Part shown: positions 18,017-45,261 of the stretch, piece by piece
Layout: each line of letters starts with the position of its first letter
Position numbering within the stretch: the first letter of the stretch is position 1
NCBI GenBank assembly: GCA_000004985.1
Contig: GG738899.1
DNA: 64,000 nt
Strand: one strand, 5' to 3'
Source of the DNA: Naegleria gruberi
Lineage: Eukaryota
The notes under the pieces: generated by a model
Told to the model about the DNA's origin: nothing
Seen by the model: only the letters and a program-made list of their open reading frames with translations
Databases searched by the model: none
Made by a program: the position numbers and the translations under genes

Positions 18017-18116
18017 ACTGGTCTGGTCGAGTTTCGTCTTGGCAATTCTCTGTCCAATTATTAATAAAACAATAAATTATTAAAACGAAATGGCCATAAT
18101 CATTTGGAAAATTCGT

Positions 18117-18635
18117 CTATCCAGCCATTGCTGAAGATACATTGCTAAGGGTAATGATGGGCAAAGCTACGGCCACAATGGACATCAAAACGAGTAGTAA
18201 TATGGTAAGGAAGAAAAGAGCTAGACTAATCCTAGCACAGATTCTTGCTCTAAGGTTTTGTGAGTTTCGAAACTGAAAAATTGAAAACATTCGAATGTGA
18301 AATTGTGAAATAATTTAACATACCATGACATAGTTGGCGATCCAAACGACCAGAAAGAAGAAACCGATAATTAACAAGACGATTGCAGTGGAAGCTTCTT
18401 CACTGATTAATTCATCATCTACAAGCCATCGCAAATCTCCTTGTTGGTAGTAGAAATCTTCCGAAACTTTATCTTTCGAATAATTATTTTCATCAATTGG
18501 TGATTTATGATTTTGTTTAATTCTTGAATTATCATCGTAAAGACAAGACGCTGATGAAGACAATGATGAAGCAATATATTCTTGTTTACCCATTCCGCAA
18601 GGTTTCCAATCTTTTTTTCTGTGTTTCCATTCCAT
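18117..18635 (-). CDS. Small putative two-pass membrane protein (speculative two-exon model: 18635-~18318 and ~18267-18117).
   Basis: ORF 18315-18635(-) ends ...AIVLLIIGFFFLVVWIANYVM followed by GTATGT. A downstream TTTTCAG acceptor opens a frame encoding a second hydrophobic helix ISLALFFLTILLLVLMSIVAVALPIIT, then a stop. No recognisable family. Confidence 0.3.
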
Positions 18636-20559
18636 TCAATGTTTCTTTAATGTATCTTATTTTACTTTTCTCAACATTTCAGTGTTACTTTTCCGAATCA
18701 TGAAATGTTAAAAAAGGAAAGCAAGGTGCCTCGTGATTTTTGCCTACTAATCATGAAAAGGTTTCGTTTAGTTTACAATAAATAATGGGTGGACAAGGTA
18801 TTGAAATGGGTGTTTCTCTAATGTTTCGTGATAGTATCCTTTCAGACTTTTCATTCTTCGCACATAATTTATGATCAAAACGGACATTAGTTGAAACATG
18901 TTAAGAAAGATTTTTCTGTCCACTCTCCTAATACCCAAAAAGTTGCAAGAGCAAGATCAAGGGTAAAACTGCATAATCACTGTGGAAATTACAACAAATA
19001 ATGTTTTGTGTAATCGTATCATGACTGTCTCCAACCTTAGAAATTCTATTATTGAAATCCAATTTTATCAACTAAGTTGGGCCAAATAGCTAATGACTAC
19101 AACCGCATAATTACACTCTCTTTTTGGAGAAACTCTCTCTTGTCCTAATACCAGCAAAGACTCCTCCACTTTAATCTCCACCACAACTTTACTAAGTTAA
19201 CGACATTATTTGTGACCTCCTGATATCTCGGATTCCTCTTAGCTTAGGATAGAATTTGATGGTGATGATGATAATTGTTTTCTTTCTCCATCGTTGCACT
19301 GGTAATGACTGGCTTAACAAGTCAAAGCCCAATAACATGGCCGTAGAAATTTACAAACAAGAATTCAACTGTCCCAATGCAAGGTTCACTATTACCTGGA
19401 ATACCTCTCTTCCTACCAGAGGAAGACGCAAGACTTAACATCAACTCTCAAACACAGAGTCTAAACTTAATGATTGAAGGCCTCATCTCTCAGGTCTAAA
19501 CGATTCAAGAGACGTTAACAATCAATTTTGAATTTTCTGTAATTTTTACTGTAAAACACAATGAATAAATAAAGAACTTTTAATACACTACTTGTAACAG
19601 TTCAACATAATGGAAACAGGTCAGTTAATCAATTATCATAAACATATATGGACCATTGATCAATTTGGCTGTAAATCACAATAATGAGGAAAACACTCAT
19701 CTGCACTTTGTAAAGTCCGAGTTGAAAGAAAGGATGAAGATATGATATTGCTATGAAAAGTTCCCGCTCAAATGTTCAGTTTTTAATTTTAAAAAATATC
19801 ATCACAACTAACCGCCATCATGATTCACTCTCATCCATTCCTTGGTGCAAGGGGAACATTGTTAAAAAGACACACAACAATGCAACAACAGCTGCATGAC
19901 GATTTTTCAGCTCGGAATAACAATGTCGTCATCCTCGGCCAAACCAAGGGATGTAATTATTGTTGGACAAATAGGATTCGTTGCATCACCTTCTAGCCTG
20001 GCACGAAATTAACAATCGAAGAAAATCATTACTTTTGAAGAGTGGGGAACCAATAGTAAGAGAAATGCAAAACCGTTAGTTAGATAACATGTTAGTTGAC
20101 AATCGGATTCAAATCATTCTTTTAAAGTTAAATTTTCGCATCAATGCGATGGTGAAGGACCCCAATCAAGAATAGCCTTCTCAAACAAGACATTTCAGTT
20201 GAATACTTCCTTTTATTACAACGGACTATAATTGAGTGTTCGTAATGAATAGAAAGGAAAGATACCACATTCTCGATATTACTCTCTAAAAGACCAGGTC
20301 ACCTTGTCTTTCTTCATGCAACGCACATTTCATTGAGTTTAATTTTTGGACCGAGTAAGGGTGAAAGGCACATCTTGGAACGTTAAGCTCGTCAGCATTT
20401 CATTCGGTTAGGTGTTTAATAGCGCGATAATTGTGTCTTACTATTTGAATTGGTGCTGCTGCATATTTTTCGATTTCAATCGTCGACAGACTTTCTCTTC
20501 CTCACATTAATAGCACAACACGAAAAAAAGACTCAGTTCAGTATTACGTCTGCACTCCA

Positions 20560-23500
20560 ATGGCACTGGTAAGTTTTATATGCGTTTAATGCGTGATTCA
20601 ATTTTGATAGAGAAACATTTCGAATGCAACAATAGTTAAATCAATTGTTGTTGCAGCAGTTGTTTTGGGTACTTTGATAGGTGCCCTAGTGATTACACTC
20701 GCTGTTACTCTAACAATCAAGTCTGATTTGAATGGCCAATTCACAGATTATGTTAAAGGATACAAGAATAGTGATATTGTAGTCCAACCAACAATTTCAA
20801 CAACATCTTCCAGTTCTCCTGCTCAATTAGACATTTCACAACAAGGATTAGAAAAGCCATATCATGGCTCCCTCAGACTAGGTTCAAACAATACCATCAT
20901 CTACCACTCTGAGAAGTATTTCTCAGGTAATGATACTTTTGAATATTATGTTACCTATGGCGAAAGCTCTTCTCTAAAAGTAAAGAACAGAGTATCCATT
21001 CTAGTTATGAATAGAGATCCAAAAGCTGTACCACTCACATTCGAAATACCAAAGAATTCTCATGATAACATCATTGATATCTTTGAAAAGAATGATAAGT
21101 TTGGAATGAAGGTTACTGATGACGATGATGATATTCTCGAGTTGGTTTCAGTATCCACTCCAAAATTGTCTGGCTCTGTTGTCTCCTCCAATAGTAAGCA
21201 AATTATCTACACTCCATGCACTAATTGTATTGGTGTAGATTCTTTTACATATACTGTTACTGATTTCAATTCAACAGTCTCCTCCACAATTACTATCAAC
21301 TTGGTCAATACTCCACCAAATGCTGTTAGAGATGATTTTACCATTAGCAAGAACAAGTTGGCAACTCTCAATGTCCTCTCCAATGATATTGATGAGAATC
21401 TTGACGAGTTGTACATCATCTCTGCTGGAACTGGTGAAGGTTCTATTGGTAGCGTTGTTGTTTCAACAGACAGAAAGTCATTGATCTATTATCCTAAAGC
21501 TGATACTAAGCCATACCTTGACGTTTTTAGTTATGTCATTACAGATGACTTGAATAATCCAAATTCAACCTCTACAGGTTCTATCCATGTTACAGTTACC
21601 AATTCACCACCTAATGCTCCTGAAACCAAACAAGTTTCAGTTTCCAAGAATTCAGCCAACTCTACCATTGATCTAACCTTTACTGATAATGATATTCTTG
21701 ATACTGTGAATGTTGAAATATTATCAACACCAAAGAGAGGTTACTTTTCTTTTGTTCAACAAAAGTATATTGATTCTGTTGATTATTTGGGTCAAATCTA
21801 TGTAGATGTTCTCAAGTTAAGATATCAATTATTGTACTCTCCAGAGAAAGGTGTTTCCTATTCTGAGAGTTTCAATGTAAAGGTAACAGATGGCTACTCA
21901 AGTTTGATTACAAGTATTATTATCAATGTGGTCAACACTCCTCCTATTTCTGTTAATGATACCATTACATGTACAAAGAATAATGAAGTAGTTGTTGACG
22001 TAATCTCCAATGACTATGATGTTGATGGTGATTCTATCAAGTTGTCTACCACCGATTGGGAGCCAAATAGTTTCAATGGTGGAGAAGTTTTCAGAACTGA
22101 TGACAGGTCAATAACATACAAAGCTCCTCAAGGGTTTGTTGGTATTGATACTGTAAGATATTACATTACTGATGGTGAATCAATTTCATATGGATTCTTG
22201 ACTGTCAATGTTCAAAGTGTAAAGCCGATTGCGGTGAATGATGTATTCTTTGTTCCAAAGGGACTCAAGACGTTCTTGAATGTATTGAACAATGACTACA
22301 GTCCAAGTAAGGATGAAATTTTGTTATCCTTTGCTACCATTAGAAGTGTTGAAGAATCCAATGTAGTACGTAGTCTCAGAAATAACGTCTATGGTTACGA
22401 ATACTCTGCCTCAGATGTGGAATATGTCGATACATTCAATTACAAGGTTGTTGATGTTTTTGGATTGACTTCCGACTCTGCAGTAGTAACTGTTAAGGTT
22501 GTAAACACTCCTCCAAAAGCTGTTGATGATGTCATTTCAGTTTCTTGGAATAGAGATGCTGTTTTGAATGTTCTCGAAAATGACTATGATGAAAATCCAA
22601 GTGATAATCAATTACTTGTTGTTAAGAGAACTATTCACGGAGAAAATCAAACAGTTCCTACTCCAGTCATCTTTGAATCAGGAAAGAAGTTACTCCTTTC
22701 CCCACCAAATGGCTTCACTGGTACTTTTGAATTTTTCTATGTTATTTCTGATACTTTTGATGAATCTAATGTGGCTAAAGTTACCGTTTCTATTGTAAAT
22801 CACCAACCAATTGCTAATGATGATCATGTTAGTGTTCATTGGAGAGATGGAATTTCTGTTATTAATGTTTTGCAAAATGATAGTGATGAAGATGGTGATA
22901 TCCTATTAATCAAGTCTTTCACTCAACCATCCAAAGGATTTGTGGTCAAGAAAGCACTCCCTGATGGAACTGAAGTATTTGAGTACTCTATTCTTGCTTC
23001 TGTAAAATTTGTCGGTATTGATAGTTTCCAATATGAAATTACAGATAATGGCAAGTCCTCAACAGCCACAGTCTATGTCAATGTTACCAACTTTTCTCCT
23101 GTAGCTAATGAAGATTCCTACAATGTACATTGGAACGCAGAGCAACAAGAGTATGAGATTCTCTCTAATGACTTTGATGGCGATTCTGATCCATTGAAAA
23201 TTGTTCCAAACTCTCTCATAATACCAAGTCAATTCAGAGGTCAAACTGAAATCAATGCTGATGGAACTGCAATCAAATTCAAACCTTCAGTTTCAGGTGT
23301 ATTTACTCTCACTTACAGAATTAGTGACACAGTAAGCCAATCATTGGACACTAAAGTTACTTTTAATGTGACCAACTTGGACAAACCGCTCCTGAGAACA
23401 ATCGAAAAGAACATCCATTGGACTATGAACCAACCAATTTCTATTCCTATCACAACTTTCACAAGAGATTCTGATGGTGATTTGCTTGTCATTTCTTCAG

Positions 23501-26500
23501 AGTTTGTGAAACAACCAACTAATGGTAGTATTGAGAGTGTTAATTATGGAGATGCAAATACAGTACCATCTCTTGTTTATAAGAAGAATCCAGGTTTCTT
23601 TGGTTCTGATATCATTCAAGTTTTATTGACTGATGGTTTAGACTCTGCCATTATTACTATCAAAGTCAATTCTATCAATCAAATTCCTCTTTGTCAAAGC
23701 ACTATAAAGGAATCAGTATTTTGGAAGGATTTACCATACGTTAGAAATAGTTTACTTATTGCAGGTGCACTCGATCAAGATAGCGAAGATATTGTCTATT
23801 TGAAGAGCGTTGCCAACAGCTTTAATGATATTTCTGTTAATGGTGATGAAATAACATTCTCTCCATTGAAGGGATTTGTTGAGGAAAGAAATGCTCAATT
23901 GATATTCTCTGACGGATTGGACATTTGTACAAGTATTTTGAAAATCAAGGTAAATGATTCAAAGCCTCAAGCAACCCCTACTATCAGTATGATTCACTGG
24001 TCTAAATCATCTTCCCTAATTGATGTCTTGTCTACTATTGTAGACGCTGATGGTGATTCATGTGATTTCAGTATCAAGTCACAATCTGACTACTCAATTG
24101 GAAGTGCCAGTATTGAATTGAATGCAAATACTAAATTTGTAAAGTGGACTGTATCTAATGATAAGAACTTAGGAGAATCCACTTTTGATATTGAATTCAC
24201 AGATGGTTATTTAACAGATACAGCAACTTATAGAGTCCAAGTTTACAACAATATTCCAATTGTTCCTCAAAAAACCATTGAAGTCCATTGGTCCAAATAT
24301 TTGAATGGTATCTCTATCAATTTGTTACAAGATATTATTGATAATGACGAACAAGATACTGTTTCAATCCCATTAAATTCTTGGGTAACAAGCAAGGTTG
24401 GAACTATCACAATGACTTCCGACAAGATTGCTCTCTATAAACCAAAGCAATCTTATTTGGGAGATGATGAAATTAATTTCACAGTAACTGATGGTTTGGC
24501 CATTGTCAATGTTACTTACAATATTAAGGTCATTAACAGAAAACCTGTTGCTGTTGATGATAATATTTCAGTTCACTGGAATGATACTAGTGTCGATATT
24601 AATGTTTTAGCCAATGACTATGATCCAGATCAAGAAGATACCATCTACATTGCTGCTTTACTCACAGAACCAAGTTCTGGAAGAGTAGAAAAGATTTCAA
24701 CCACAACTGTAAGATATTACTTACCTGAAGATCACTCTGTTTTGGGTGATTTTACTTTCCGTTACTCAGTCACTGATGGTACTGAGATTGCTGAAGCTAA
24801 TGTTACTGTAGATATTGTAAATAGAGATTATCCAATAGATGCCTCTATTTCAAGATCTATCCATTGGAGAGAAGCTGTTTCTGGACTTGCAATCAACATT
24901 GTTCCTTCCAAGAATGATCAAGATGGTGATTTAATAATTTTAAATATTGTTGAATCAAACAATCCTGGCATATTTAGCATTTCCAATGATGTTAACTTGC
25001 TCGTAAAGAGTGAAGAACCTCTCAAGGGAGACTTTAACGCCTCAGTTTCTATCTTTGATGGTATCTCTGTTGCTAATGCACATATTCAAACCTCAATTTA
25101 CAATCATGCTCCAACATCAAGGGATTTGTATTTCAACTTCCACTGGAGTACAATTAGTAGAGGAGTCTATATTGATCTAGTTCAACGATCAAATGATATT
25201 GACTTGCAAGATAAATCAAAGTTGAATATCAAGCATGCTCAAGTTATTGCTGGACCAGATGCTAATGCCGTAACCATTGTAAACAATACTCTTTACTTCA
25301 AGCCAAGCATTCTTGAAATTGGCAACACAACAATTGAGTTTATTATTAGTGATGGATTTGAAGATTCTGATTTACATACCATGATTATTGAAAGTAGAAG
25401 TGTTGTTGCTCAGAAAGCAGATCAATACTTTGATGCTCATTGGCGTTCGTTTGCTTTTGGTAATATCTATGGTCTCGATGAATCATTCAGTAATGAAGAA
25501 ATGATTACCTTATTGGATGTCATTCAACTTCCTGATCATGGAGGACAAGTATCCATTAGTACTATTAGAAACGTTACTTACTATCCTAAAGAAAACTTTG
25601 TTGGTACTGAAGTTTTTGCTGTTTCCTACACAACAGGCATTACCTCATCAAATATTACTGTTCATGTTAATGTCTATAACAATAATCCACAAGGTGCTCC
25701 AAAAGATTATGAAACTCACTGGAGAAATCCTGTTTTGATGAATATTCTTAATGGTGCCTTTGATGAAGATGAATACGATAGATTCTACTTGTTCCCAGAG
25801 TTGCTTGAAGAGTCAACAACAGGAACTTTGTCACAAATTGCTCCTGATGGTTCTGTAACCTTTACTCCAAATGTTACTTCTGGTTTTATTGGAACAACTA
25901 CCTTCTATTACAGAATCAATGATGGAAATAAGGTCTCTTTACCAACTCCTGTAACAATTACCATCAATAACAATCCACCAACATCACACACTAAAGTATT
26001 GAATATAATGTGGAAGAATTTCCTTGATGGTGTTGATTTTGACATTATTTCAACAAATCCAACAGACACTGATTCTGACTCTTTAGATATTCCATTCTTA
26101 TTTGTAAAGAGTTTCAATCAACCATTGCCTTTTGGAGAAGTTTCTCGTTTATCTTCATCCAGAGTCAAGGTTCAAGGTAGTTCATCGTTCCTAGGCTCAA
26201 CTTCATTCTCTTATGTTTTATCAGATGGTGCCATGAATGGTGATTCTACTGGTATTGTGGCCATTAACGTTTACAATAACAAACCAAACTTGACCCAAGA
26301 TACAATTACCACACACTGGAATGTCGACTTTATTGATATTGATGTTTTGTCCAACGATTTTGATATTGATAATAATCCTCTCTTGATTACAACTCTTAAG
26401 AATTATGCCTCACCTGACTCACAAATCATTTTGAATAATAAGGTGAGATATTATCCAAGAACTTGTTCTTCCTCTTCAGATAAATTTAACTATGTAGTTT

Positions 26501-29500
26501 CTGATGGCATTGAATCATCAGAGAGTGAAGTTAATGTAATCATTCTCAATAACAAACCAATTAGCAAGAATTATAATACCACCCATGTATGGCACAATGC
26601 TATTGGAGGTGTAGTTTTCGATATTGTCTCTGAATCAGTGGATGTCGATGGAGATTCTATCAGTATTGTTAAATTCAGCTCTATTCCTTCAGAACAAGGT
26701 ACATTAGAATTGACCAACAATAATAAGAGTCTAATCTATACTCCAAGACTTGGTTTTATTGGTAGTGTTGAAACAATTTCCTATGTAATTACCGATGGAA
26801 GAGATGAAGCTGTTGGTACTATTGATATTGAAATTACTAATAATTTCCCATCTTTGGGTGTTTCTGCAGTTTCTTCTCATTGGAGAAGTGCATTGGAAGG
26901 AACTTTATTCGATTTGAGCTCGAAGTTTATTGATACAGATGGCGATAATGTAATCTTGAAGGCTGTCATTCACCAAGCAGCTAAGGGAACTGTATCAATC
27001 ATTGATTCCAAGACAATCAAATATCAAAGCTCATTTTCTTTCAAGGGTAGTGATTCTTTCACTTTACAATTATCAGACGGATACAACCTTGTTACTGTTG
27101 ATTTGGAAATTGATGTTACTAACAATTTACCAACCTTGAGTGATATTTCTATCCAAACTCTTCACAGATTATCTGGAAATGTAATTATTCCATTGATTAA
27201 CAGAACCGATTCGTTGAAACCAAAAGATTTGGATATTCTCGACAATGACAAGCTTACCATTTCTGCTTTCACTCAACCAGGTATTGGAAGTGTTGTTTTT
27301 TCTGATGCTACACAACTTTCATTCACCTTCTCCAATGTTTTGGGTAATCTTTTGGAACAAACCTTCTCTTACACTGTGTCAGATGGATTGGAAAGTGCAT
27401 CTGCATCTATTACCATTCAAATTCTTAACAATCCTCCAGTTTTGGTTGATGCTGCAAAGAGTTTCCACTGGAGATCTATCTATGAAGAAGGTGGTTCAAT
27501 TGCTCTTGATATTTTGAAGGAATCTAATGCTTTAGATGCTGATGGCGACAATTTGTTCGTAAAGAGCTTTACTCAACCAAGTGTTGGTTCTGTATCTTCC
27601 TTGAATACTTCTCATGTCACATTTAGTCCTGTTGCATTTAAGGCATTTACAACAAGCTTCAAGTTTACTGTTTCAGATGGTGCTCAACAAGTTGAGAAAC
27701 AATTTGACATTTCTATTACAAACACCAATCCAAAGGCAGTTGATGACAGCTTGAACAAATTGTGGAGCAACAAGGTGTTCACTTTCTCTCCATTGGTTAA
27801 TGATTATGATGATAATAATGATCAAATCACTATCGTCCCAGAGTTGACTGAAAAAGTTTCAAGATTGCGATCAGCCTCAATTACTGTAAACAGTGACTTG
27901 AAAACTATTACCTATTCTGATACAGGTTCACTCACTACAGGATCTGATTCCTTCTCCTATACTATAACAGATGGTGTAGCAACAAGTTCTGCTATTGTTT
28001 CTATCACTTTTACTAATACCGAACCTTCAGTTGAATCATTTGAAGTTTCTGTCAAGTGGGATCAATCTATTACTTTTGATAATCTCCTTGGTAGATGTAA
28101 AGATCTTGATGGTGATGCATTGTCATTTGCTGGTATTACTCAAGGGATGTTAGGAACTACTCAATTGATTGACTCTCAAATCGGAACTTCTAAATATACA
28201 CCAAATCGTGCCTTGACCTATACCAACAAACCATCGACTGGTAATTGGACAGTTGTTGATACTATCCAATACTCATGCACAGATAGTGTTGTTCAAAAGG
28301 CAGGTACCATTTCAATCACAATTTACAATGAACCACCAAAAGGAAACGATATTTCCATCTCTCAAGTTAGAAATTACAATAATCCTCAAATTTCAATTGA
28401 TGGATATTCAATTTTATCTCAATCTAGTGATTCCAATGGAGATTCTATTACAATTACCAAAGTCAAACTCTATGATAACCAAAATATTGAAACTTCTGTT
28501 GTTTTACAAGCTGACAGTTCCATCAAATTCAAATATGGCAAGTCTTTCATTGGAATTCAAAAATTCTACTATACTATTTCAGATGGACAACTTGAAAACA
28601 CATACACATATTCTGTTGAAATATTGGGAAGCCCATCTTTGTGCGTCGATTATACCATTTCTACATTCAAAGACGCTTTGTCAACAGCATTCGGATCTGA
28701 CTTGAATTCCAAGTTGAATTTGGCATTTGATGGCGAGCCAATCTCTGTAACAGTTTCTGGAACCTCAACCTTGAGCTCTGTTGGTACTATTAGCACTGTT
28801 GATAATACCCTCACATATACTCCAAATAAGAGAAGATCCTGTATTAACAATGCTTGTTATGCCACCTACACAGCAATCAATGCTGCTGGTCAATCAGCCA
28901 CTTGTAAGATTATTGTCAATCAATCTAACCAAGCTCCAAATAATCCAAGCTATACCTACAAGTATTCTGCCAGAAGAGATGGAAACAACTTGATGATCTT
29001 TGATTATCTTGTTGATGCAGCTGTAACCGATCCTGATAGTACAGACAGCGTTTCTATTCAATCAATCTCAAGTCTTGGATCATGTTCTGATAAGGCCACT
29101 ATTTCTGTTAGTAATGGAAAGATTTCATTCACTAGACAAGCCACCTTCCTTGCTTCCACTTGTACATTCAACATTAAATTACAAGATGATGATGAATTAA
29201 CACCTGCTACAAGCATTGCCTCTATTACAGTTAATCCAACTATTTCTCCACCGTTGGCAGTTTCTGATAACATTATGGCCACTTTCAATTCCAACAGAGA
29301 TATTGATGTTTCTGTTTTGCTTCAAAATGATATTGATTTATTGGGAGGTAGCTTTACATTTGATGGTTTATTCTGCCCAGACGCAACTTACTGCAAGAAT
29401 GGTCTTCCAACCTTGTTGAATGCCAACACTGTTAGAATTCCTTTCAAGACTGGAAGTTGTGAAGCTGAAAAGGTTCAATACAGAATCAAGTCAACCCAAG

Positions 29501-32500
29501 ATGGATCTGTATCATATGCCAATATTATTATCAGATATGCTGGTTGTGTTTGCGAAAATATTTTCGACGTTGTTTTCATTGTTGATGGTTCTTATTCTAT
29601 TTCAGATGCCAATTGGGTCAGTTTGAAATCATTCTTCTCCAATATTACCCAAAGCTTGAACGTTGGTCCTTCTGCAACTAGAATTGGTATTGTTCAATAC
29701 AGTTCTGATGCAACTGTTGAATTAGATCTGAATAGTGGAACTTCGTCTAATGCTATTGTCAATCGTATTAGTAATATTGCTCAAAAGAAATCAGCAACTG
29801 CTTCAATTTATGGTATTGATAAGGCTGTTGAATTGATGGTCTCTCAAGGAAGAAGTGATGTTCCAAACAAGCTCTTTATTCACGTAACTGATGGTCAAAG
29901 TAATATGCCTTGCTCATGTGGTGAATGTAAGAATTATTATGGAACATTTGAAGGATGTAACTCTGTCTTATATCCTGGTAAATCGTGTGACTATTGCTCA
30001 TGGAATGATCCTCAAAGTCGTTGTGCACCTTGTTCAGATTACACAGAAAAATGTCAAAGAATTAACAAGTGGAGAAGTGGTAATAATGATAATCCTGAAC
30101 CATCTAAGAATTGGAATTATAGAATGATGGCTATTGGTATTGGATCTGGTGTCAATAATCCGTACGGTCTAGTTCAATTAGAAAAATCAAACTATGACCC
30201 ATCCCTCTTCCATTTATTCGATTGGAATGATTTGAATTATAAGATGATTGTTGATGAATCATGTGCTGCTTCTTATAACATTTATGGTGAAACTGCTCTC
30301 CAAAATACTACTTACGCTGATTCTCAAATTACAGTTCAATATTCTGGTAGAAGTGTTGTCAATCAATCAAATATTGCTAGTACAACATTTACCTATGTCT
30401 TGACAGCACCAACAAGCACAAAGCAAAAGAGTATCAAGAAATTCGTACTTTCCAATTCAATTTCTGATCCAGAATCATATGTTTCATACAACCCAACATT
30501 CCCTGTATTTGTTGGAACTGAATCCTTGACAAGCTTATTTGGATTTGTGTGGGACTCTGTTCCTTCCTCATCACTTGTTCCAATGGGATCATCTAAAACT
30601 GTTACCATTACTGTATGCGGTGATGTTCCTGAAAGTATGGTTTCTTTTGGTGTTGTTAGTGAATCCTTCATTACCTATTCAACAATTAAGGGACCAGCTA
30701 CTTCACTCTGTGTTGATAAGCCAGTTATTGATCCTAATACTCAATGTTTTGCTAAATCTGGAGCTTCATCATGTAGTGGACATGGTTTGTGTGTTCAACC
30801 TGATCTATGTCAATGTAATTCTGGATACACTGGAACTGAGTGTGAAACTCCTATTTGTTTCGATTTGACTGGTAACTTTGCATGCTCTGGTACTTCTAAG
30901 GGTACTTGTACTGGACCTAATACTTGCCAATGTCAAACTGGTTGGACTGGTACTGATTGTTCTATTCCAATTTGTTATGGTCTTGCAGCAAATAATGCTG
31001 GTTCTTGTAGTGGTTCCTCAAAAGGTACATGTATTTCTAAAGACACATGTCAATGCCAAACTGGATGGACTGGATCTGACTGTTCAGTTCCTATTTGTTA
31101 TTCACAGACTGGATCATCTGCCTGCTCAGGACCATCTCAAGGAAGTTGCATTTCTAAAGATACTTGCCAATGTCAAACTGGTTGGACTGGACCTGAATGC
31201 TCAATTCCAATCTGTTATGGATTAGCAGCAAATAATGCTGGTTCTTGTAGTGGTTCATCAAAGGGTACTTGTATTTCTAAGGATACATGCCAATGTCAAG
31301 ATGGTTGGACAGGATCAGATTGCTCAATTCCTATTTGCTTTGGTCGTCCACAAACTGATACATTATCTTGCTCTGGTTCCTCCAAGGGTACTTGTGTTTC
31401 AAAGAGCAGTTGTTCATGTCAAACTGGTTGGACAGGTTTCGATTGTTCCATTCCAATTTGTTATGGTGTGAATAGTACATCTACATCTGTTTGTGGTGGC
31501 TCCTCAAGAGGTTCCTGTACATCTAAGGATACCTGTCAATGCCAAACTGGATGGACTGGTTCTGATTGTACCGCTCCTGTCTGTTATGGAGCTTCTGGCA
31601 GTAGTGCTTGTGGTGGATCCACTAAGGGAACATGTACTGCACCTAATTCTTGCTCCTGTAAGACTGGTTGGACTGGTTCTGATTGTACAACTCCAATTTG
31701 TTTCTCAAATACTGGAACATCTGCTTGTGGTGGTTCCTCTAAGGGAACATGTACTGGTCCAGACACATGCCAATGCCAAACTGGTTGGACAGGATCAGAT
31801 TGCACAACCCCAATTTGTTATTCACAAACAGGATCTTCAGCTTGTGGTGGTTCAACTAAAGGTACTTGTACAGCTCCAAATACTTGTTCATGTCAATCAG
31901 GATGGTCTGGAAGTGACTGTACAACTCCTGTATGTCCAGGAAATTGTAATGGTAGAGGTTCATGTTCTGCACCAAATTCATGCAGTTGTAATAGTGGATG
32001 GACTGGTTCTGATTGTTCCATTCCTATCTGTTATTCACAAACAGGATCTTCAGCTTGTGGTGGTTCAACTAAGGGTACTTGTACAGCTCCAAACTCTTGC
32101 TCCTGTAATTCTGGTTGGTCTGGTTCTGATTGTACAACTCCAATTTGTTCAGGTGGTTGTGGTAATGGCGTTTGTAGTTCACCTGGTTCTTGTTCCTGTA
32201 ATTCTGGTTGGAGTGGTGCCACTTGTACAACTCCNNNNNNNNNNNNNNNNNNNNNNNNNNNNNNNNNNNNNNNNNNNNNNNNNNCAGTGGATGGAGTGGA
32301 TCTGATTGTAGTGTTCCAATTTGTTCAAGTGGTTGTGGAAATGGATATGCCAGTTCACCTGGTTCTTGTTCCTGTAATTCAGGTTGGAGTGGTGCTACTT
32401 GTACAACTCCTGTTTGCTCTGGTGGTTGTGGTAATGGTTATTGTAGCTCACCAGGATCCTGCTCATGTAATTCTGGATGGTCTGGTGCCTCTTGTACTAC

Positions 32501-33218
32501 TCCTGTGTGTTCAGGTGGTTGTGGAAATGGTTATTGTAGCTCACCAGGTACTTGTTCCTGTAATTCTGGATGGTCTGGCACAACATGTTCAACACCTGTC
32601 TGCTCTGGTGGCTGTGGTAATGGTTTTTGCAGTGCTCCTGGAAAATGTACTTGTAATTCTGGATGGTCTGGCACAACTTGCACAACTCCAGTTTGTTCAA
32701 GTGGTTGTGGTAATGGCGTTTGTAGTTCACCTGGTTCTTGTTCCTGTAATTCAGGTTGGAGTGGTGCTACTTGTACAACTCCTGTTTGTTCAACATGTAA
32801 TGGTAGAGGTTCATGTGTTGGTCCAGAAAGTTGTTCATGTAACAGTGGATGGTCTGGAAATCTCTGTCAAACACCTGTCTGCTCAACCTGCAATGGACGT
32901 GGTACTTGTGTTGGTCCAGAAAGCTGTTCTTGCAGTAGTGGATGGACTGGAAACTTGTGTCAAACACCTTCATGCACCAATAATTGTAATGGACACGGAA
33001 CCTGCACTGGGCCAAATACCTGTTCCTGTAATTCTGGTTGGAGTGGAGCTGCCTGTGAAACTTGTAGTAATTGTTGTTATGGTATTCCAGCTTCTGATCC
33101 AAGTGTTTGTTCCTGGGGTCAAGGTAGATGTGTGAGTGGTGCTTGTGTCTGTATTGGTCCTTACTATTGTGGTGCACAATGTCAACAATGTGGTTGTAAC
33201 AAATATATGTGTCCTTAA
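20560..33218 (+). CDS. Giant adhesin-like type II membrane protein (>4,500 aa): 3-codon first exon (20560-20568), 42-nt intron (20569-20610), N-terminal signal-anchor transmembrane segment, ~28 tandem ~100-aa cadherin/VCBS-like repeats, Cys-rich linker, VWA domain, then at least 22 tenascin-type EGF-like repeats. The CDS is interrupted by a 51-N assembly gap (~32234-32284) inside the EGF array. Stop at 33216-33218.
   Basis: ATG GCA CTG|GTAAGT...GATAG|AGA joins in frame to track ORF 20665-33135, giving MALRNISNATIVKSIVVAAVVLGTLIGALVITLAVTLTIKS (hydrophobic anchor). Repeats carry the recurring signature V(N/Y)(N/T)xPxAxxDxxxVxWNxxxxxIxVLxNDxDxDGD, about every 100 aa from ~20980 to ~29300. VWA/MIDAS-like DVVFIVDGSYSIS...RIGIVQYSSDATVELDLN at ~29560-30200. 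EGF modules C.G.G.C.....C.C..GW(T/S)G.DC..P(I/V)C recur every ~31 aa from ~30760. Track ORF 32208-33218 continues the same EGF repeats after the gap in the correct frame and ends ...CQQCGCNKYMCP*. Confidence 0.8.
20980..29300 (+). repeat. Coding tandem array of ~28 divergent ~300-nt (100-aa) cadherin/VCBS-like repeat units within the giant gene.
   Basis: Periodic protein motif (VNTPPxAVxDxISVxWNxxAxLNVLxNDYDxDxD and variants such as IHW/THW/FHW + ...ND.D.DGD) counted about 27-29 times in the translation of 20665-33135. Confidence 0.7.
30760..33120 (+). repeat. Coding tandem array of ~93-nt EGF-like repeat units, highly similar at the nucleotide level, containing the assembly gap. The true copy number is unknown.
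   Basis: Recurring ...tgt caa tgt caa act ggt tgg act gg(a/t) tct gat tg(t/c) tc(a/c) att cc(a/t) att tgt tat... units. A run of 51 N at ~32234-32284 lies in the middle of the array. Alternate reading frames stay open across the array (track ORFs 30878-32305 +), typical of a low-complexity repeat. Confidence 0.75.
32234..32284. other. Assembly gap (51 N) inside the EGF-repeat array of the giant gene.
   Basis: Literal run of n in the sequence. Flanking sequence on both sides is the same EGF repeat unit. Confidence 0.95.
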
Positions 33219-35438: not shown

Positions 35439-36368
35439 TTGAAAATATTTTTCGTAACGGTCATAAAAAAAATGGAAAACTTGTCGAGAGCTTCCTTGCC
35501 ACTAATTCTTTCTTCTTTTGCTGTGGGTGTTTTATCGGTCAAGTTTTGTGAGTGGTTATTATTGAAGAGGAAGGATGAGGAGAAGATTGTTTCCACTTCA
35601 ACGCCATCTAATGTAGAACCTGTAACCACTACCACCACAACAACAACAACTCCAGAAGCATCATCAACAACAACAATAGAAAAGAAGGAAGAAAATGATG
35701 ATGAGGATTGGGAAGATGAAGGTGATGATGATGATGAATTTGATGAAGAGGAATCGGGTGAAGACTACTCTGACGAAGAGGATGACGATCCTAAAAAGTT
35801 ATTACTATTGGTGAGAACAGATGTAAATATGCAAAAAGGAAAGATGTGTGCTCAATGTGGACATGCTAGGTTTGTAATATTATAATAATTTAAATTAATA
35901 ATATTAATTCATCTACAATACTCTCATCTTCATATTAATGGATGAATTTGGAATTATATATTTGTGGATGTTNNNNNNNNNNNNNNNNNNNNNNNNNNNN
36001 NNNNNNNNNNNNNNNNNNNNNNTGGTTACACAAATGGATCATTATGGTGCTGCAAGATTGCTGTAAAGGTTGATAAGATCAAATGGATTTCTTCCAAACT
36101 GAAGCTAAGAAGAGAGGCCTCCCAACATACCGAGTGATTGATGCAGGAAGAACACAAATTGAAAGAGGAACAGCAACAGTTCTTGGTAAGTTTTCCTTCA
36201 TCATTTTGGAAATTAATTCAAATTTCATCAATTTATGTTACCATCTAACTATTAATGTTTTTAATATATTTGTCTAATTATTATTGCCATCTAACTATTA
36301 ACAACAGCTATTGGACCATGTCCTAATAGATTATTGGACTTTACCAAGGAATTGAAATTATTGTAATT
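35439..36368 (+). CDS. Peptidyl-tRNA hydrolase, PTH2 family, with N-terminal transmembrane anchor and acidic linker. Multi-exon; the gene spans a 60-N assembly gap (~35963-36022), and the sequence just 3' of the gap has at least 2 apparent -1 frameshifts.
   Basis: Exon 1 (35439-~35869) has transmembrane segment LPLILSSFAVGVLSV, D/E-rich EDWEDEGDDDDEFDEEE, and catalytic-domain start KKLLLLVRTDVNMQKGKMCAQCGHA followed by GTTTGT. After the gap three frames together spell QMDHYGAA/KIAVKVDKIK/DFFQTEAKKRGLPTYRVIDAGRTQIERGTATVLG|GTAAGT (PTH2 core, cf. ...DAGRTQI..G..TVLG). Last exon ~36307-36368 encodes AIGPCPNRLLDFTKELKLL*. Confidence 0.65.
35963..36022. other. Assembly gap (60 N) within the PTH2 gene.
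   Basis: Literal run of n. Confidence 0.95.
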
Positions 36369-36470: not shown

Positions 36471-38894
36471 TTACATTTTAATTGGAGAATTAATGATGGA
36501 AACAGCATCTCCAGCACTATAGAGGGCAACAGCAAAGTAAAAGATATCATCTTCGCCATTCAATCGTTTAACAATTTCTTGGAAAGCAATTCCTAAAGGT
36601 TGACTATTCTTTACAAATGAGAGAGTGCCATTGGTTCTCAAATCAACTTGGACTTTGAAGGTATCTCCCGTTCCACCTCCACCGAAATTATCATCATAGT
36701 GGAGTGAGTGGAAATTGTGACAAGTATGACCATTGTACAGGTAATAACACCAACCATTTTCATAATTGAGATTTCCGTTCAAATTCACATCAGCTTTGCA
36801 AATACCAATGTTGATAATGCCCTGGGCGGTCTTGTTAACTTTGAGATTGAATTCTTTACGTTGTCCAAATCTGATTGGCTCGACACACAAATTTACAGAC
36901 CATCCATCAATGTTAATCTTGGTAAGGGTTTTGCCTTCGTTGGAAACTTGTAAATCTTTACCAGTCATGAGGAGATCAAATCCACTGACAATTCCACTCA
37001 CGTGGTGTCGAGGCTTTGTTGTGAAAAAGTCGTCATCGCTAGATACTCCAATTACTTCAGAGCTATCAAAGATCGAGGTTGGACTCAGTACAGAAATCTG
37101 TTCTACATGCATCACTGGAGCAGAAAGTAAATTGCTGGTACTAATATTGGCAATTCCAGCAAGTTGTTGAGTGGTTGTCTTTTGGAGAGCCAATTGTTGA
37201 TTGGCCTTATCTACCTTGTGTACTATTGTATTGAGTTGACAGCTCATTGCCTTGGCAATCTTCTTTAAAAGCTTGACTTGCAGTTCCAGATCTGCCACGT
37301 ACTTTTCAGGGATGGAAATCAAATAGTGCAAACATTCAGGAGACAAGTATTGGAGACGAATATGATTTAACAGAGTTGGGAAGTATTTCTTTCTCACTTG
37401 GAAATCGTATTCTACCCACAGAAGAGCAGCATTTAAAATATCGTCCTCAGTTCTCACATTCAAGTCATCTCTCGAAATAATGTTCAGCACTGTTTCAACA
37501 TCTCCAATTAAATTCAATTGACCATTCTTGCATATGATAAAGAATTTCTGGGCTATGAATTGGCTGGCCTTTGTTTTGAGAGATTGATATTTGGAATTTT
37601 CCAAGAAAATACACGAAAGCACATTAAATTCGTTCAAATTCTTCTCCAGATATGCCTCGCAAATCGATGCCAAATCCACAAACATGTACTTATCAGCAAT
37701 CTCCAACAGTGGAGCAGAATCGCACTCCAAACAATCCACTTCCAAAGTATACATTGTCTTGATCATTATACAGAAAATTCGCACATCCTCATATCCTATA
37801 TCGTTCTCCTGATCTTGATTATTATGAAAATCAGGACACTCCATCACTGAATGATCCATTATTTCAATAAAATCACATTTCGTTTTCATCTTTCCAAACA
37901 TCATTTCTTTAAAAAATGGACTATACAGTGATAGAATTGCCTTATTAACATAGAGTGTTGTTGAGGTCAGTTGAGGAATATCATTCGTCTTGATTGTCAA
38001 ATTGTCCTGCAACGAATCCACTTCTGTTGCATTGGTATGTAAACAATTTGGTAGTGTTGATGAACTGTCTTCCTTGTCTGATGAATTTTCACAACACGAC
38101 AATACATTCCCCAAATTCAACTTGTTCGAATGTTTCATCACAATCCTAAAATCAGCCAACTCCTCATTATTAAACAAACTCGGTACATTACTCTCAAAAC
38201 TCTTCCCAAATGTAATTTTCGCCTTTTGCAATCTCACATTATTCTCAGAGAGAACAAATCCTCTCAGTGAACTATTCAATATCGTGTTGGTCATGCTCAA
38301 ATTCCTCGTGTGATGTCTCTGTGGAGGTGTTTGTCCCCCCATCATGATTGGTGAACTAGGTGGAGGTGGTGGATTAAAATTGATAGATTGTAAAATTGAG
38401 GGTGATTGCTGATTGGTTAGGGATGAACTGTTACTTCCTTCACTTGTGGTGGTGCTAGTGGTGCTGTTAGAAATGGCGATGGGTGAAGATTTTGTTTGAT
38501 TGTTATCGGTTGTTGATGTTGCGATTATTGATGATGAAGTGTTTAATGAAGTGGGAGAATTATTCGAAAGTAAAGTTTCTTTGGAATCTTGTTCGGTTGC
38601 TTGGAGAATATTTAGTGGATTTGATGAGGGAGAAACATTTTGGACTGCAAGAACCATTCCTGAAAGTGTTTCCGATGATGAATTTGTTATTGTTGTATTA
38701 ATTTCTTGATTATCCGAAGATGTTGTATTATTCGAAATGTCATTCGAAACATTTAAAACTAATTGCGTCGGTGAAGAGGAAAATTGTTTAGTGTTGNCGG
38801 ATCCACCAACACTTGTTTCGAATATTGTTCTTGGTGAAGAAGAAGATGATGCATTCGATGATGATGACGAATTATTCGAATACCTCTTTGACAT
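36471..38894 (-). CDS. BTB/POZ-BACK protein with C-terminal SPRY/PHR-like beta-sandwich domain and N-terminal S/T/N-rich region.
   Basis: Single 807-aa ORF (one ambiguous base at ~38797). BTB-like FNNEELADFRIVMKHSN...TLYVNKAILSLYSPFFKEMMFGKM...DVRIFCIMIKTMYTLEVD. BACK-like LEIADKYMFVDLASICEAYL...LLNHIRLQYLSPECL. C-terminal ~180 aa (...TLTKINIDGWSVNLCVEPIRFGQRKEFNLKVNKTAQGIINIGICKADVNLNG...GWCYYLYNGHTCH...GDTFKVQVDLRTNGTLSFVKNSQPLGIAFQ) resembles a SPRY/PHR fold. Confidence 0.6.
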   Translation of the reverse strand: MSKRYSNNSSSSSNASSSSSPRTIFETSVGGSXNTKQFSSSPTQLVLNVSNDISNNTTSSDNQEINTTITNSSSETLSGMVLAVQNVSPSSNPLNILQATEQDSKETLLSNNSPTSLNTSSSIIATSTTDNNQTKSSPIAISNSTTSTTTSEGSNSSSLTNQQSPSILQSINFNPPPPPSSPIMMGGQTPPQRHHTRNLSMTNTILNSSLRGFVLSENNVRLQKAKITFGKSFESNVPSLFNNEELADFRIVMKHSNKLNLGNVLSCCENSSDKEDSSSTLPNCLHTNATEVDSLQDNLTIKTNDIPQLTSTTLYVNKAILSLYSPFFKEMMFGKMKTKCDFIEIMDHSVMECPDFHNNQDQENDIGYEDVRIFCIMIKTMYTLEVDCLECDSAPLLEIADKYMFVDLASICEAYLEKNLNEFNVLSCIFLENSKYQSLKTKASQFIAQKFFIICKNGQLNLIGDVETVLNIISRDDLNVRTEDDILNAALLWVEYDFQVRKKYFPTLLNHIRLQYLSPECLHYLISIPEKYVADLELQVKLLKKIAKAMSCQLNTIVHKVDKANQQLALQKTTTQQLAGIANISTSNLLSAPVMHVEQISVLSPTSIFDSSEVIGVSSDDDFFTTKPRHHVSGIVSGFDLLMTGKDLQVSNEGKTLTKINIDGWSVNLCVEPIRFGQRKEFNLKVNKTAQGIINIGICKADVNLNGNLNYENGWCYYLYNGHTCHNFHSLHYDDNFGGGGTGDTFKVQVDLRTNGTLSFVKNSQPLGIAFQEIVKRLNGEDDIFYFAVALYSAGDAVSIINSPIKM

Positions 38895-44187: not shown

Positions 44188-45261
44188 ATGTTCGATGAAA
44201 AATACTTTAATCCAGTTCACTATGCAAATGCTGAACAAGAATACAAACAAAAAAATAGAGAAAAGTCACTTGTAAAATATGATGATGATTCCAATTCTGG
44301 ACCAGTTACTGAAACTCAAATGAGAGCAGGCGATTCTGATTCATTAGATGAAGTGACTCTTTCTTTATATGTTAATAATATTCCAGCTTCCAAAAAGGAA
44401 CCATTTACCATTTATATCAATGGTGATGAATTTTTCAAGAGTGAAGAAGAAATTCCACTCACAAGAACTACTGTATTGAGAGCTTCATTTGAAAAACCAC
44501 CACGTGGTGAGGAATTGGTCATTGAAGCTCGTTTCAATATTGAAGCTCGTGATGTTGACACCAAGCAACAATTTAACATTACCAAAAATGGTACATTCAT
44601 GTTCTTTGGTATCGAAAAAGTTGGAGACAGTGAACGTATCCAAATGAAACAACAACATAATGATACTTTTGGACCAAAATCTGGAGAAACTATGACTAAA
44701 TCAAGTGGTGCTTCTGCTAGCTCAAAGAGTTCAACTGAACAAATTCCAGTTTACTTCCATTTGGCTGGTATTAATGCTACTGAACAAAAACCATTCGAAA
44801 TTTATGTTAATGGTCAACAAATTTACAAGCAAACTCAAGATCTTGGAGATAGAATGGCCATTGTAACTGGAAGATTGCCAAATGTTGATGATTTGAGAGT
44901 TACTGTTAAGGCAGTTTCTCTCCTCGATGGTTTGGAAGAAGAATCTGAAGTTAACGTCTCCAAGTATGGTAATTACATCAAGTTGGAAGTTAGCAGTGAT
45001 CGTTCTGTTATTGACATTACTCAATCAAAGAATGCTGAATTTGACAATGCCACCATTGTTGATTCAAAGAAGATGCCAAAATCCATTCCAAAAGTTACTC
45101 CTTCCACTACCTCAACAACTACAACTGCAAAGCCAGCAGCATCAACAGGAGGAAGTGAAGATTATTTGGATGTTTTGAAAAAGTTGGGTGAATTGAGAAA
45201 GGCAGGTATTTTGACTGAAGAAGAATTCCAAGCAAAGAAGAAACAAGTTCTTGGTTTGTAA
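44188..45261 (+). CDS. Hypothetical protein with two more copies of the same ~95-aa domain, an S/T-rich linker and a SHOCT-like C-terminal tail.
   Basis: Single 357-aa ORF. Repeats LSLYVNNIPASKKEPFTIYINGDEFFK... and YFHLAGINATEQKPFEIYVNGQQIYK... C-terminus EDYLDVLKKLGELRKAGILTEEEFQAKKKQVLGL matches the SHOCT-type pattern (L..L..L...G.IT.EEF...K..LL). Confidence 0.55.
   Translation: MFDEKYFNPVHYANAEQEYKQKNREKSLVKYDDDSNSGPVTETQMRAGDSDSLDEVTLSLYVNNIPASKKEPFTIYINGDEFFKSEEEIPLTRTTVLRASFEKPPRGEELVIEARFNIEARDVDTKQQFNITKNGTFMFFGIEKVGDSERIQMKQQHNDTFGPKSGETMTKSSGASASSKSSTEQIPVYFHLAGINATEQKPFEIYVNGQQIYKQTQDLGDRMAIVTGRLPNVDDLRVTVKAVSLLDGLEEESEVNVSKYGNYIKLEVSSDRSVIDITQSKNAEFDNATIVDSKKMPKSIPKVTPSTTSTTTTAKPAASTGGSEDYLDVLKKLGELRKAGILTEEEFQAKKKQVLGL

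Follow-up and report, generated by a model that had tools for sequence, protein, structure and literature searches.

A giant Naegleria gruberi gene for a putative type II surface protein with a tandem-95 stalk, a VWA head and EGF modules

Introduction

To our knowledge, the molecular basis of Naegleria attachment to surfaces and to prey is poorly understood, and heterolobosean amoebae lack integrins. The window analyzed here, a stretch of 64,000 nucleotides from Naegleria gruberi, contains on its plus strand, at 20560-33218, a locus in which a first-pass annotation had recognized three types of extracellular module within a single giant chain: an array of repeats otherwise characteristic of bacterial adhesins, a VWA domain and a run of EGF modules. 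Such a combination raises the question of whether the locus is a genuine eukaryotic gene and, if so, what protein it produces and what this protein may be used for. As described below, the three-module observation is confirmed, save for one numerical error (the size of the protein) and one imprecise label (that of the repeats), and the gene is real and intact.

Gene model and 5′ end

The 5′ end of the gene comprises two short elements:
20560-20568, plus strand: putative exon 1, ATG GCA CTG (Met-Ala-Leu), read from the sequence
20569-20610, plus strand: putative 42-nt GT-AG intron, with GTAAGT at 20569 and AG at 20609-20610

The ORF scan bears out the proposal of one long exon that follows a three-codon first exon: frame 1 carries no stop between 20608 and 33133, the long frame being open from 20611 to an assembly gap at 32235 (about 3,875 stop-free codons), and after the gap the EGF-coding frame 0 runs to the stop codon at 33216-33218. 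The proposed end at 33218 and the absence of internal stops outside the gap are therefore right, whereas the predicted size of more than 4,500 residues is not; the assembled coding sequence has 4,187 residues (3,877 + 310), and any extra depends on the content of the gap.

The 42-nt interval contains in-frame stops at 20587, 20605 and 20608 and therefore must be spliced out. Since the long frame has no Met before about residue 136, the protein retains its hydrophobic anchor only if translation starts at the ATG at 20560-20562; when the upstream ATGs followed by GT donors were listed, this ATG was also the sole one with a GTAAGT donor able to join the long frame. A three-codon exon 1 would thus be the simplest 5′ model. 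An alternative 5′ exon at 19896-19952 (MTIFQLGITMSSSSAKPRD) looked family-like by eye and was discarded, its match to a profile of 11 family N-termini being not significant (E about 2); no upstream exon fitted the profile of family N-termini, its best hit having an E value of 0.06 and lying at an unrelated site. A paralogue in N. lovaniensis has one 5′ intron only, of 309 nt. Elsewhere in the window, a GT-AG intron of 60 nt interrupts a neighbouring gene at 3141-3200, and a tRNA scan of the whole 64 kb found none.

Domain organization

The remaining features, in order along the gene, are the following:
20632-20715, plus strand: putative type II signal anchor, the one hydrophobic segment of the protein, about aa 10-38 (Kyte-Doolittle)
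20734-29241, plus strand: 28 tandem-95/Big_9/Cadherin_5 units, aa 45-2880 (own-profile tiling, Pfam, NCBIfam)
28627-28908, plus strand: divergent unscored slot of 94 aa inside the array, aa 2676-2769 (own-profile tiling)
29242-29556, plus strand: Cys-bearing terminal repeat-like unit, aa 2881-2985, with a GCVC motif at its end, just before the VWA domain (alignment)
29557-30285, plus strand: VWA domain, aa 2986-3228 (Pfam, alignment, AF2/Foldseek)
29584-29598, plus strand: MIDAS motif DGSYS, aa 2995-2999 (motif read)
About 29905-30096, plus strand: Cys-rich insertion in the VWA domain (family alignment)
30286-30756, plus strand: domain of about 157 aa, predicted all-beta sandwich, aa 3229-3385 (conservation, AF2)
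30757-32234, plus strand: part of the EGF array preceding the gap, with 13 signatures; units first of 39-41 aa and then of 31-32 aa (motif count, Pfam)
32235-32284, no strand: assembly gap, 50 N, with different reading frames on its two sides
32285-33056, plus strand: EGF array after the gap, frame 0, one truncated and eight complete modules (motif count)
33057-33218, plus strand: Cys-rich C-terminal tail, 53 aa and stop codon, with no hydrophobic end (translation)

The hydrophobic segment, of about 25-28 residues, is the sole stretch in the whole protein with a Kyte-Doolittle mean above 1.9, and the same hydropathy scan found no C-terminal hydrophobic segment or anchor. Only about 10 residues, at most 13, precede it, whereas most of the relatives with a complete N-terminus have a tail of 25-35 residues carrying a conserved motif (MPxG...NxSLLKGG), followed by a matching hydrophobic segment; this finding supports the type II signal anchor proposed in the first-pass annotation and, with it, a single-pass, N-in and C-out topology, which we infer. 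Most of the family motif is missing in the N. gruberi gene, where only NIS and the anchor are kept, and the predicted cytosolic tail, being so short, provides no evident link to the cytoskeleton; no obvious signalling motif was seen in it.

The stalk consists of units of about 100 residues (95-105), arranged head to tail. A profile built from the units themselves places 28 of them back to back, or 28-30 if the unscored slot and the Cys-bearing unit are counted, in agreement with the roughly 28 initially proposed; the Cys-bearing unit aligns, with conserved Cys positions, to sequences of N. lovaniensis (P0049, contig L003 and P0026). On the whole protein, Pfam recognizes Big_9 (PF17963) in 19 stretches with E 7e-169 and 549.7 bits against a cut-off of 23.6, as well as Cadherin_5 (E 4e-99) and Cadherin_4 (E 5e-82), while the NCBIfam tandem-95 model NF012211 reaches 225.8 and 243.6 bits, where the cut-off is 90. 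Profile searches thus recognize all three module types, the others being VWA and EGF_TEN. The original "VCBS/cadherin-like" label stands in its second half and is imprecise in its first, because, at E <= 0.01, nothing but NF012211 and a CshA repeat below threshold came out of the NCBIfam scan, and no VCBS model matched. A sequence search of the PDB with two stalk units gave nothing meaningful and no solved relative. The unit consensus carries acidic N..P, NDxDxDGD and TDG motifs which, together with the Pfam clan (E-set, PMC8286594), point to an Ig-like or cadherin-like beta-sandwich fold; by analogy with bacterial cadherin-like repeats, Ca2+ binding by the units is probable and would stiffen the rod.

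Downstream of the stalk, Pfam VWA (PF00092) matches aa 2989-3102 with E 2e-23 (83.9 bits, cut-off 23.8), and DGSYS, already noticed as MIDAS-like, belongs to a complete MIDAS, whose residues (D10, S12, S14, T81 and D112, numbered within the domain) do not vary among seven family members. Only positions 1-117 of the 174 of the VWA profile are matched, since the Cys-rich insertion breaks the C-terminal half. An AF2 prediction of the head from the single sequence was unusable (pLDDT 34); the model obtained from a seven-sequence alignment is of moderate quality (mean pLDDT 64.7), with the insertion unmodelled and the C-terminal half of the VWA domain poor, while in the N-terminal half, at pLDDT 70-89, the Rossmann-like alpha/beta fold expected of a VWA domain is predicted. 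Foldseek matched this half to integrin alpha1 and alpha2 I domains, Toxoplasma gondii MIC2 and VWF A2 (E 1e-8 to 1e-10), and also to collagen VI and to receptors that combine VWA and Ig domains, such as ANTXR2. The following domain of about 157 residues has no Pfam match; it is 35-43% identical in six relatives, and AF2 predicts strands only, with block-mean pLDDT of 58-89.

The signature CxCxxG[WY]xGxxC occurs 21 times and one more module is cut by the gap, which gives the 22 tenascin-type EGF repeats proposed as a minimum. Pfam matches in this region are EGF_TEN (E 5e-86), EGF_Teneurin, EGF_2 and DUF7949. The modules are coded in frame 1 before the gap and in frame 0 after it, where frame 1 is nonsense, and the first module after the gap has Ala at an expected Cys position; the 50 N cut a module, and the remark that copies are hidden there is correct. 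At the DNA level the arrays are tandem repeats, with a period of 117-123 before the gap and of 93 after it. Similar EGF arrays were found by sequence search in many unrelated proteins of Naegleria, Acrasis, insects, oomycetes and bacteria. The whole protein has 170 cysteines.

A heterolobosean family

The gene in the window is one member of a family of giant, putatively type II proteins whose other members come from Willaertia magna, N. lovaniensis and N. gruberi itself. A word-indexed search with the head returned fish VWA proteins only, and the relatives were found by exhaustive search: the VWA-to-beta-domain module, of about 390 residues, matched five proteins with E 1e-110 to 2e-86, namely N. 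lovaniensis C9374_012226 (3,429 aa), W. magna ABK040_005755 (3,559 aa) and N. gruberi NAEGRDRAFT_72752, NAEGRDRAFT_79080 and NAEGRDRAFT_79811. All five are 35-43% identical to the N. gruberi gene over the head and share with it, in the same order, the anchor, the tandem-95 array, the Cys-bearing unit, the VWA domain with Cys-rich insertion and full MIDAS, and the beta domain. N. gruberi has at least four paralogues. Literature searches retrieved no description of the family and no paper mentioning the paralogues.

C9374_012226 and ABK040_005755 have 29 units each, in one-to-one correspondence with those of the window protein. Indeed, for repeats 1-28 the best partner is in register in 27 of 28 cases against the Willaertia protein and in 26 of 28 against that of N. 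lovaniensis, and the in-register scores across species are usually above those of any pair within a protein; this unit-for-unit match indicates that the array of about 29 units is old. Two N. lovaniensis loci (L001 and L004) have other neighbours than those in the window, so that orthology rests on the repeat register instead.

The family members differ at the distal end. Unlike the N. gruberi gene, the relatives have no EGF signatures, and among 17 relatives inspected at least nine end directly after the VWA domain, while five have the beta domain and a C-terminal lectin-like domain of about 130 residues, identified by Pfam as Lectin_C (E 1e-10) in the N. lovaniensis protein and judged alike by eye in the other four. 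The distal lectin would fit a recognition tip with exchangeable modules. When the C-termini of five paralogues were used in tblastn for a lectin-like end elsewhere in the window, noise only was obtained.

Comparison with known adhesion systems

The likeness to teneurins and tenascins suggested in the first-pass annotation holds for the EGF subtype and the membrane orientation and fails for the rest, and the resemblance is superficial. Teneurins share the type II orientation and EGF modules that match EGF_TEN and EGF_Teneurin, but their large intracellular domain, NHL propeller, YD shell and toxin domain are missing here (Pfam, E <= 0.01), and their EGF modules are eight and membrane-proximal, whereas the N. 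gruberi gene has at least 22 at the far tip. Tenascins share tandem EGF modules of about 31 residues with the CxCxxGWxGxxC signature; their N-terminal oligomerization/assembly domain, FN3 repeats and fibrinogen globe were not found (no fn3 or Fibrinogen_C match in Pfam). In summary, the three modules, the signal anchor and the gap remark of that interpretation stand, and the teneurin/tenascin likeness, the size and the VCBS label do not. Classical cadherins are equally distant, as Pfam returned no PF00028 and only the bacterial-type Cadherin_3/4/5, and there is no C-terminal anchor.

Integrin alpha I domains, MIC2/TRAP and ANTXR2 are the best structural matches of the head and share the VWA fold with the DxSxS...T...D MIDAS; in ANTXR2 and Mfa5 an Ig-like beta domain follows the VWA domain, as the predicted beta domain does here. 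The adhesins with integrin-type, MIC2/TRAP and ANTXR2 heads have the opposite, type I orientation, have neither a tandem-95 stalk nor a Cys-rich insertion, and are only about 25-30% identical in the N-terminal half of the VWA domain.

Beyond the heterolobosean family, the nearest sequences are bacterial tandem-95 repeat proteins, which belong to the same repeat family (NF012211, Big_9) with 24-31% identity. Big_9 is among the domains that form the stalks of bacterial fibrillar adhesins, in which VWA ranks second in frequency as an adhesive domain, and the logic of a stalk bearing an adhesive domain is the same as in the N. gruberi gene (PMC8286594). The latter differs in having an intron and a putative type II anchor in place of a secretion-system signal or cell-wall anchor, and in its Cys-rich VWA insertion, EGF modules and Trp-containing "HW" repeat subtype. 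This subtype occurs in 18 of the 29 units of the N. gruberi protein and is absent from the 12 named bacterial proteins and the 10 top unnamed matches examined. Bacterial RTX adhesins are not a match either, as no HemolysinCabind domain was found by Pfam and the gene is eukaryotic.

Alternative explanations

Since nearly all stalk matches are bacterial tandem-95 repeat proteins, the locus could be an artefact: it might be contaminating bacterial DNA, have arrived from bacteria by transfer only very recently, or be dead or misassembled, with collapsed repeats accounting for its apparent length. The frame change across the assembly gap and the failure to find a gene model would agree with this: no protein identical or nearly identical to the product was retrieved with aa 1-1315, 2881-3420, 3095-3392 or the EGF part as query, and the public protein sets searched apparently have no entry for the gene, its size and the gap being the probable cause. 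This reading is nonetheless very improbable and largely refuted. G+C is uniform, at about 35%, and equal to that of the flanking genes, which are eukaryotic (BTB-BACK, FMO and LRR among them) and include an ORF identical to N. gruberi XP_002672199.1; the gene depends on a spliceosomal intron and fuses the tandem-95 array to eukaryote-type EGF modules; the stalk has no detectable DNA-level tandem repeat that could collapse, and a stop-free frame of such length cannot be due to chance. Intact relatives in three heterolobosean species, with corresponding units, and the HW subtype argue against a bacterial origin of the locus as well.

Other readings accept the gene and differ on its product. The N-terminal stretch might be cleaved as a signal peptide, giving a secreted matrix or cyst-wall component in which VWA and EGF modules assemble a coat or network, as the VWA domains of collagen VI and matrilins do in extracellular networks; Naegleria encysts, the closest VWA sequences outside the family are fish collagen VI and matrilin (30-38% identity), and the few residues ahead of the hydrophobic stretch, the many cysteines and the lack of a C-terminal anchor are compatible with secretion. 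We consider this unlikely, because the hydrophobic stretch, at about 25-28 residues, is long for a signal-peptide core, the conserved tails of the relatives suggest a retained cytosolic segment and not a cleaved leader, and a conserved 29-unit register fits a fixed-length spacer better than bulk matrix. Less likely still is a prey-recognition or phagocytic receptor, as opposed to a substratum adhesin, whose head would capture bacteria and whose paralogues, differing in their tips (a lectin, EGF modules or the VWA domain alone), would form a specificity repertoire: N. gruberi feeds on bacteria and has several paralogues, and variation in the family is mainly distal, with the EGF array found only here, but the very short cytosolic tail shows no obvious motif for signalling. 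Such a receptor overlaps with the explanation preferred below, differing in the ligand only.

Proposed role

The preferred explanation, which we hold to be probable with real room for doubt, is an intact gene for a single-pass type II surface glycoprotein that is built like a bacterial fibrillar adhesin and binds its ligand in a metal-ion-dependent manner. A single membrane anchor, preceded by a very short cytosolic segment at the N-terminus, would hold the protein at the cell surface; about 29-30 tandem-95 (Big_9/cadherin-like) beta-sandwich domains would form a rod projecting outward from the membrane, and this would carry the head, that is, the VWA domain with its complete MIDAS and family-specific Cys-rich insertion and then the beta-sandwich domain, with at least 22 tenascin-type EGF modules lying beyond it in the N. 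gruberi gene only. Its putative job would be to bind an external ligand far from the cell, at a constant distance of the order of 100 nm by our own estimate of about 4 nm per Ig-like domain; candidate ligands are the substratum, prey bacteria or another cell.

A broader proposal, which is speculative and on present evidence rather doubtful, is that adhesion or prey capture in Heterolobosea depends mainly on a family of type II "ruler" receptors of fixed length, with a stalk taken from bacteria long ago, which then diversified to give the eukaryote-specific HW subtype, a MIDAS-type VWA head and exchangeable tips (lectin, EGF array or none). If the ruler reading is true, the conserved 29-unit register would imply that selection acts on how far the receptor reaches.

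Significance

No known principle is overturned by these results, as both the domains and the stalk-plus-head logic are already familiar. The apparent absence of the gene from the protein sets searched means that the locus needs re-annotation and closure by long reads. The family represents a bacterial adhesin module domesticated in a eukaryote, behind a eukaryotic anchor and beside EGF or lectin modules, and a long repeat array that was kept unit for unit across genera rather than expanding and contracting. For the biology of Naegleria, a surface protein in which a bacterial-type, presumably rigid stalk carries a predicted metal-dependent binding domain resembling that of integrins provides a concrete candidate for attachment.

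Domain organization of the giant protein

The giant gene (20560-33218, plus strand) codes, as assembled, for a protein of 3,877 + 310 = 4,187 residues, fewer than the more than 4,500 proposed in the first-pass annotation. The protein was scanned against the Pfam and NCBIfam HMMs, and the Pfam matches supported the modules already recognized by eye, i.e., repeats, a VWA domain and EGF modules.

Pfam matches of the giant protein
Big_9: 19 stretches, E 7e-169
Cadherin_5: E 4e-99
Cadherin_4: E 5e-82
VWA: aa 2989-3102, E 2e-23
EGF_TEN, EGF_Teneurin, EGF_2 and DUF7949: in the EGF part

In the NCBIfam scan the tandem-95 model NF012211 scored 226 and 244 bits (cut-off 90), while no VCBS model was reported at E <= 0.01, and the repeats are thus better described by the former name than as VCBS units. 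Iterating a profile on the protein's own sequence yielded 28 adjoining units that fill aa 45-2880, the number initially estimated, including one divergent slot at aa 2676-2769; a terminal repeat-like unit bearing Cys follows at aa 2881-2985. The consensus of this stalk unit is v.i.v.N..P.a.dd..s.hWn.....idiLsnd.D.DgD...Ysp...f.G.dtF.Y.iTDG...vnv.N. The EGF signature occurs 21 times, in addition to one module cut by an assembly gap, this count being that of the assembled sequence, since the gap hides the true total. At the DNA level, tandem repeats (periods 93, 117 and 123) were detected only in the EGF part of the gene, with none in the stalk-coding part. The sole strongly hydrophobic stretch spans about aa 10-38 and no hydrophobic C-terminus was found; the type II topology suggested at first is supported as a prediction. 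The likeness to teneurins and tenascins is confined to membrane orientation and the subtype of the EGF modules, and fails for all their other defining features in Pfam.

Gene structure and assembly

No stop codon occurs between 20611 and 33133 in the long reading frame (frame 1), which is interrupted by a run of 50 N at 32235-32284. EGF modules are read in frame 1 before the gap and in frame 0 after it, where they continue perfectly until the stop at 33216-33218; frame 1 downstream of the gap encodes a hydrophobic nonsense string. This shift indicates that the gap conceals a length that, relative to the placeholder, is not a multiple of three. In the first complete module downstream of the gap (GNGYASSPG), Ala (GCC, 32349-32351) takes the place of the Cys found in all sister modules; this may be either a real module with an unpaired cysteine or a low-quality base call at a contig end.

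At the 5′-end, the codons ATG GCA CTG (20560-20568) precede a GTAAGT, and an AG ends at 20610. The putative 42-nt intron contains three in-frame stops and the first in-frame Met of the long frame occurs only at about residue 136, so that splicing is needed to obtain the hydrophobic N-terminus. No better first exon was present among the listed upstream ATG-to-donor combinations, and a profile built from the family N-termini did not reveal any hidden upstream exon. That short introns occur in the N. gruberi genome is indicated by the 60-nt GT-AG intron (3141-3200) of a neighbouring gene. Queries with several different parts of the protein retrieved no self-match in the protein collections, and the gene is apparently unannotated; that the locus is an artefact or a pseudogene is essentially excluded.

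Age and conservation of the stalk

A register test compared each of the 28 units by alignment with all units of a relative and placed the best partner in register for 27/28 units in Willaertia and for 26/28 in N. lovaniensis, mostly with large margins; scores across species usually exceeded those of any pair of units within the N. gruberi protein. This unit-for-unit correspondence indicates that the array of about 29 units is older than the split of the genera and has not been homogenised, and it marks out the long Willaertia and N. lovaniensis proteins as the nearest counterparts to the gene, although synteny with their loci is lacking.

Of the 29 stalk units (20734-29241), 18, all among units 7-27, carry a Trp within an "HW" motif close to their start, the first six units being devoid of it. 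The motif is present in seven of eight named heterolobosean proteins and in all nine eukaryote-like relatives checked, whereas no unit of the 12 named bacterial proteins or of the 10 best unnamed hits contains it, a distribution indicating that the eukaryotic units form a subtype of their own. This subtype argues against contamination or a recent transfer; an ancient bacterial origin of the stalk domain is possible. A search with aa 1-1315 yielded 124 protein matches at 24-31% identity, and in nearly every case the named ones were tandem-95 repeat proteins of bacteria, apart from an N. lovaniensis protein with Big_9 and VWA. Homologues of the tandem-95 type are also reported from the amoeba Vermamoeba, one of them being its highest-expressed "bacterial-like" gene (PMC7125106).

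A family of giant heterolobosean proteins

An exhaustive search with aa 3095-3392 recovered a family comprising the following long proteins, together with shorter N. lovaniensis proteins and several metagenomic or transcriptomic ones.

Long relatives recovered by the exhaustive search
N. lovaniensis C9374_012226: 3,429 aa, 42% identity
Willaertia magna ABK040_005755: 3,559 aa
N. gruberi NAEGRDRAFT_72752: 2,816 aa
N. gruberi NAEGRDRAFT_79080: 2,704 aa
N. gruberi NAEGRDRAFT_79811: 2,366 aa

The module from the VWA to the beta domain (about 390 aa) matches five long relatives with E values from 1e-110 to 2e-86. At their N-terminus, family members have 25-35 aa (MPxG...NxSLLKGG) ahead of a hydrophobic anchor, followed by 7-29 tandem-95 units and a Cys-bearing terminal unit; a "C.C" motif immediately precedes the first VWA strand, and the VWA contains a Cys-rich insertion, PCSC.EC...C..CSW....C.PC. 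Many members end directly after this domain; the long ones continue with an uncatalogued beta domain and a C-terminus of about 130 aa, which Pfam recognizes as a C-type lectin domain in the N. lovaniensis protein (Lectin_C, E 1e-10) and which in the other long members resembles it by eye. No lectin-like sequence is present in the window, and the EGF signature was found in none of the 17 relatives examined, so that the EGF array is specific to the gene described here; comparable arrays are frequent in unrelated proteins.

The contig of the paralogue NAEGRDRAFT_72752 measures 331,038 bp, as long as the 331-kb scaffold of the window, and is probably this scaffold; the accession number of the paralogue falls about 40 after that of the window gene NAEGRDRAFT_72676. 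In a metagenome contig (L003:1121-10789; AT-rich, 33% G+C), three consecutive same-strand ORFs, which fill it nearly completely, code for tandem-95 units with the Cys-insert VWA last, without EGF or lectin modules after it; they are probably parts of one gene that is interrupted by short introns, codes for 3,100 aa or more and belongs to an unsampled relative.

The VWA and beta domains

AF2 prediction of the head from the single sequence gave a pLDDT of 34, and a model based on a family alignment of seven sequences reached a mean of 64.7. Block means were 69-89 in the N-terminal half of the VWA, values fell below 50 in the Cys-rich insertion, and the downstream domain (aa 3229-3385), which has no Pfam family, was modelled as all-beta with block means of 58-89. 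Foldseek comparison of the head model with the PDB retrieved the integrin alpha1/alpha2 I domains, Toxoplasma MIC2, VWF A2 and collagen VI, as well as VWA+Ig proteins, e.g., ANTXR2 and Mfa5. The five residues of the metal-ion site (MIDAS) are invariant throughout the family alignment.

Genomic neighbourhood

The window has a G+C content of about 35% throughout and carries eukaryote-type genes; its ORF 13665-16136 is identical to N. gruberi XP_002672199.1 (NAEGRDRAFT_72676).

Other features of the window
1502-4099, plus strand: ORFs 1502-3181 (NHL, EGF_TEN, EGF_2, DUF7949) and 3218-4099 (protein kinase), joined via the 60-nt GT-AG intron at about 3141-3200; looks like a receptor kinase whose ectodomain carries the EGF subtype of the giant gene
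18017-20559: stretch of about 2.5 kb that precedes the giant gene and lacks a convincing ORF, in an otherwise gene-dense window; the only candidate is 106 aa (18315-18635, minus strand) with a hydrophobic C-terminus
35973-36022: additional gap of 50 N, between genes
38797: single N, within the BTB-BACK-SPRY ORF 36471-38894
58088-63100, plus strand: ORF of 1,670 aa (DEAD, Helicase_C, HA2, OB_NTP_bind, KH, RING, two IBR), a DEAH-type helicase fused to an RBR-type ubiquitin ligase

The flanking genes at 13665-16139, 36471-38894 and 45119-47266 belong to families recurrent in the window (BTB-BACK-TLDc, BTB-BACK-SPRY and DUF4116), and a DUF4116 gene also adjoins the N. lovaniensis relative.

Putative function

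All the domains and the principle of the architecture are already known, and the family relatives are unnamed predicted proteins in the databases; a literature search found no paper describing the family. What is new is the recognition of the family, its eukaryote-specific features (the putative type II anchor, the Cys-insert VWA and the HW units), the fixed register of 29 units, and the EGF tip, unique to this gene, which is apparently unannotated.

The protein has the anatomy of a fibrillar adhesin, in which a long stalk of Ig-like repeats would separate the anchor from a distal binding head, the distal position of the C-terminal head following from the putative type II signal anchor. In bacterial fibrillar adhesins, Big_9 serves as a stalk domain, and VWA ranks second in frequency among the adhesive domains (PMC8286594); the logic of stalk and head is the same, whereas the giant protein is eukaryotic and has a putative type II signal anchor. 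The main rival reading is that of a secreted matrix or cyst-wall component, raised by the unusually short N-terminal tail; we regard it as unlikely. An exchangeable tip, absent in some members and a lectin or an EGF array in others, points together with the invariant MIDAS to ligand recognition, and the conserved register of the units points to selection acting on the stalk itself. Together with the adhesin-like anatomy, these features favour a role at the surface, and the giant protein is, with some confidence, a putative adhesion or recognition protein, the ligand of which may be the substratum, prey or another cell.
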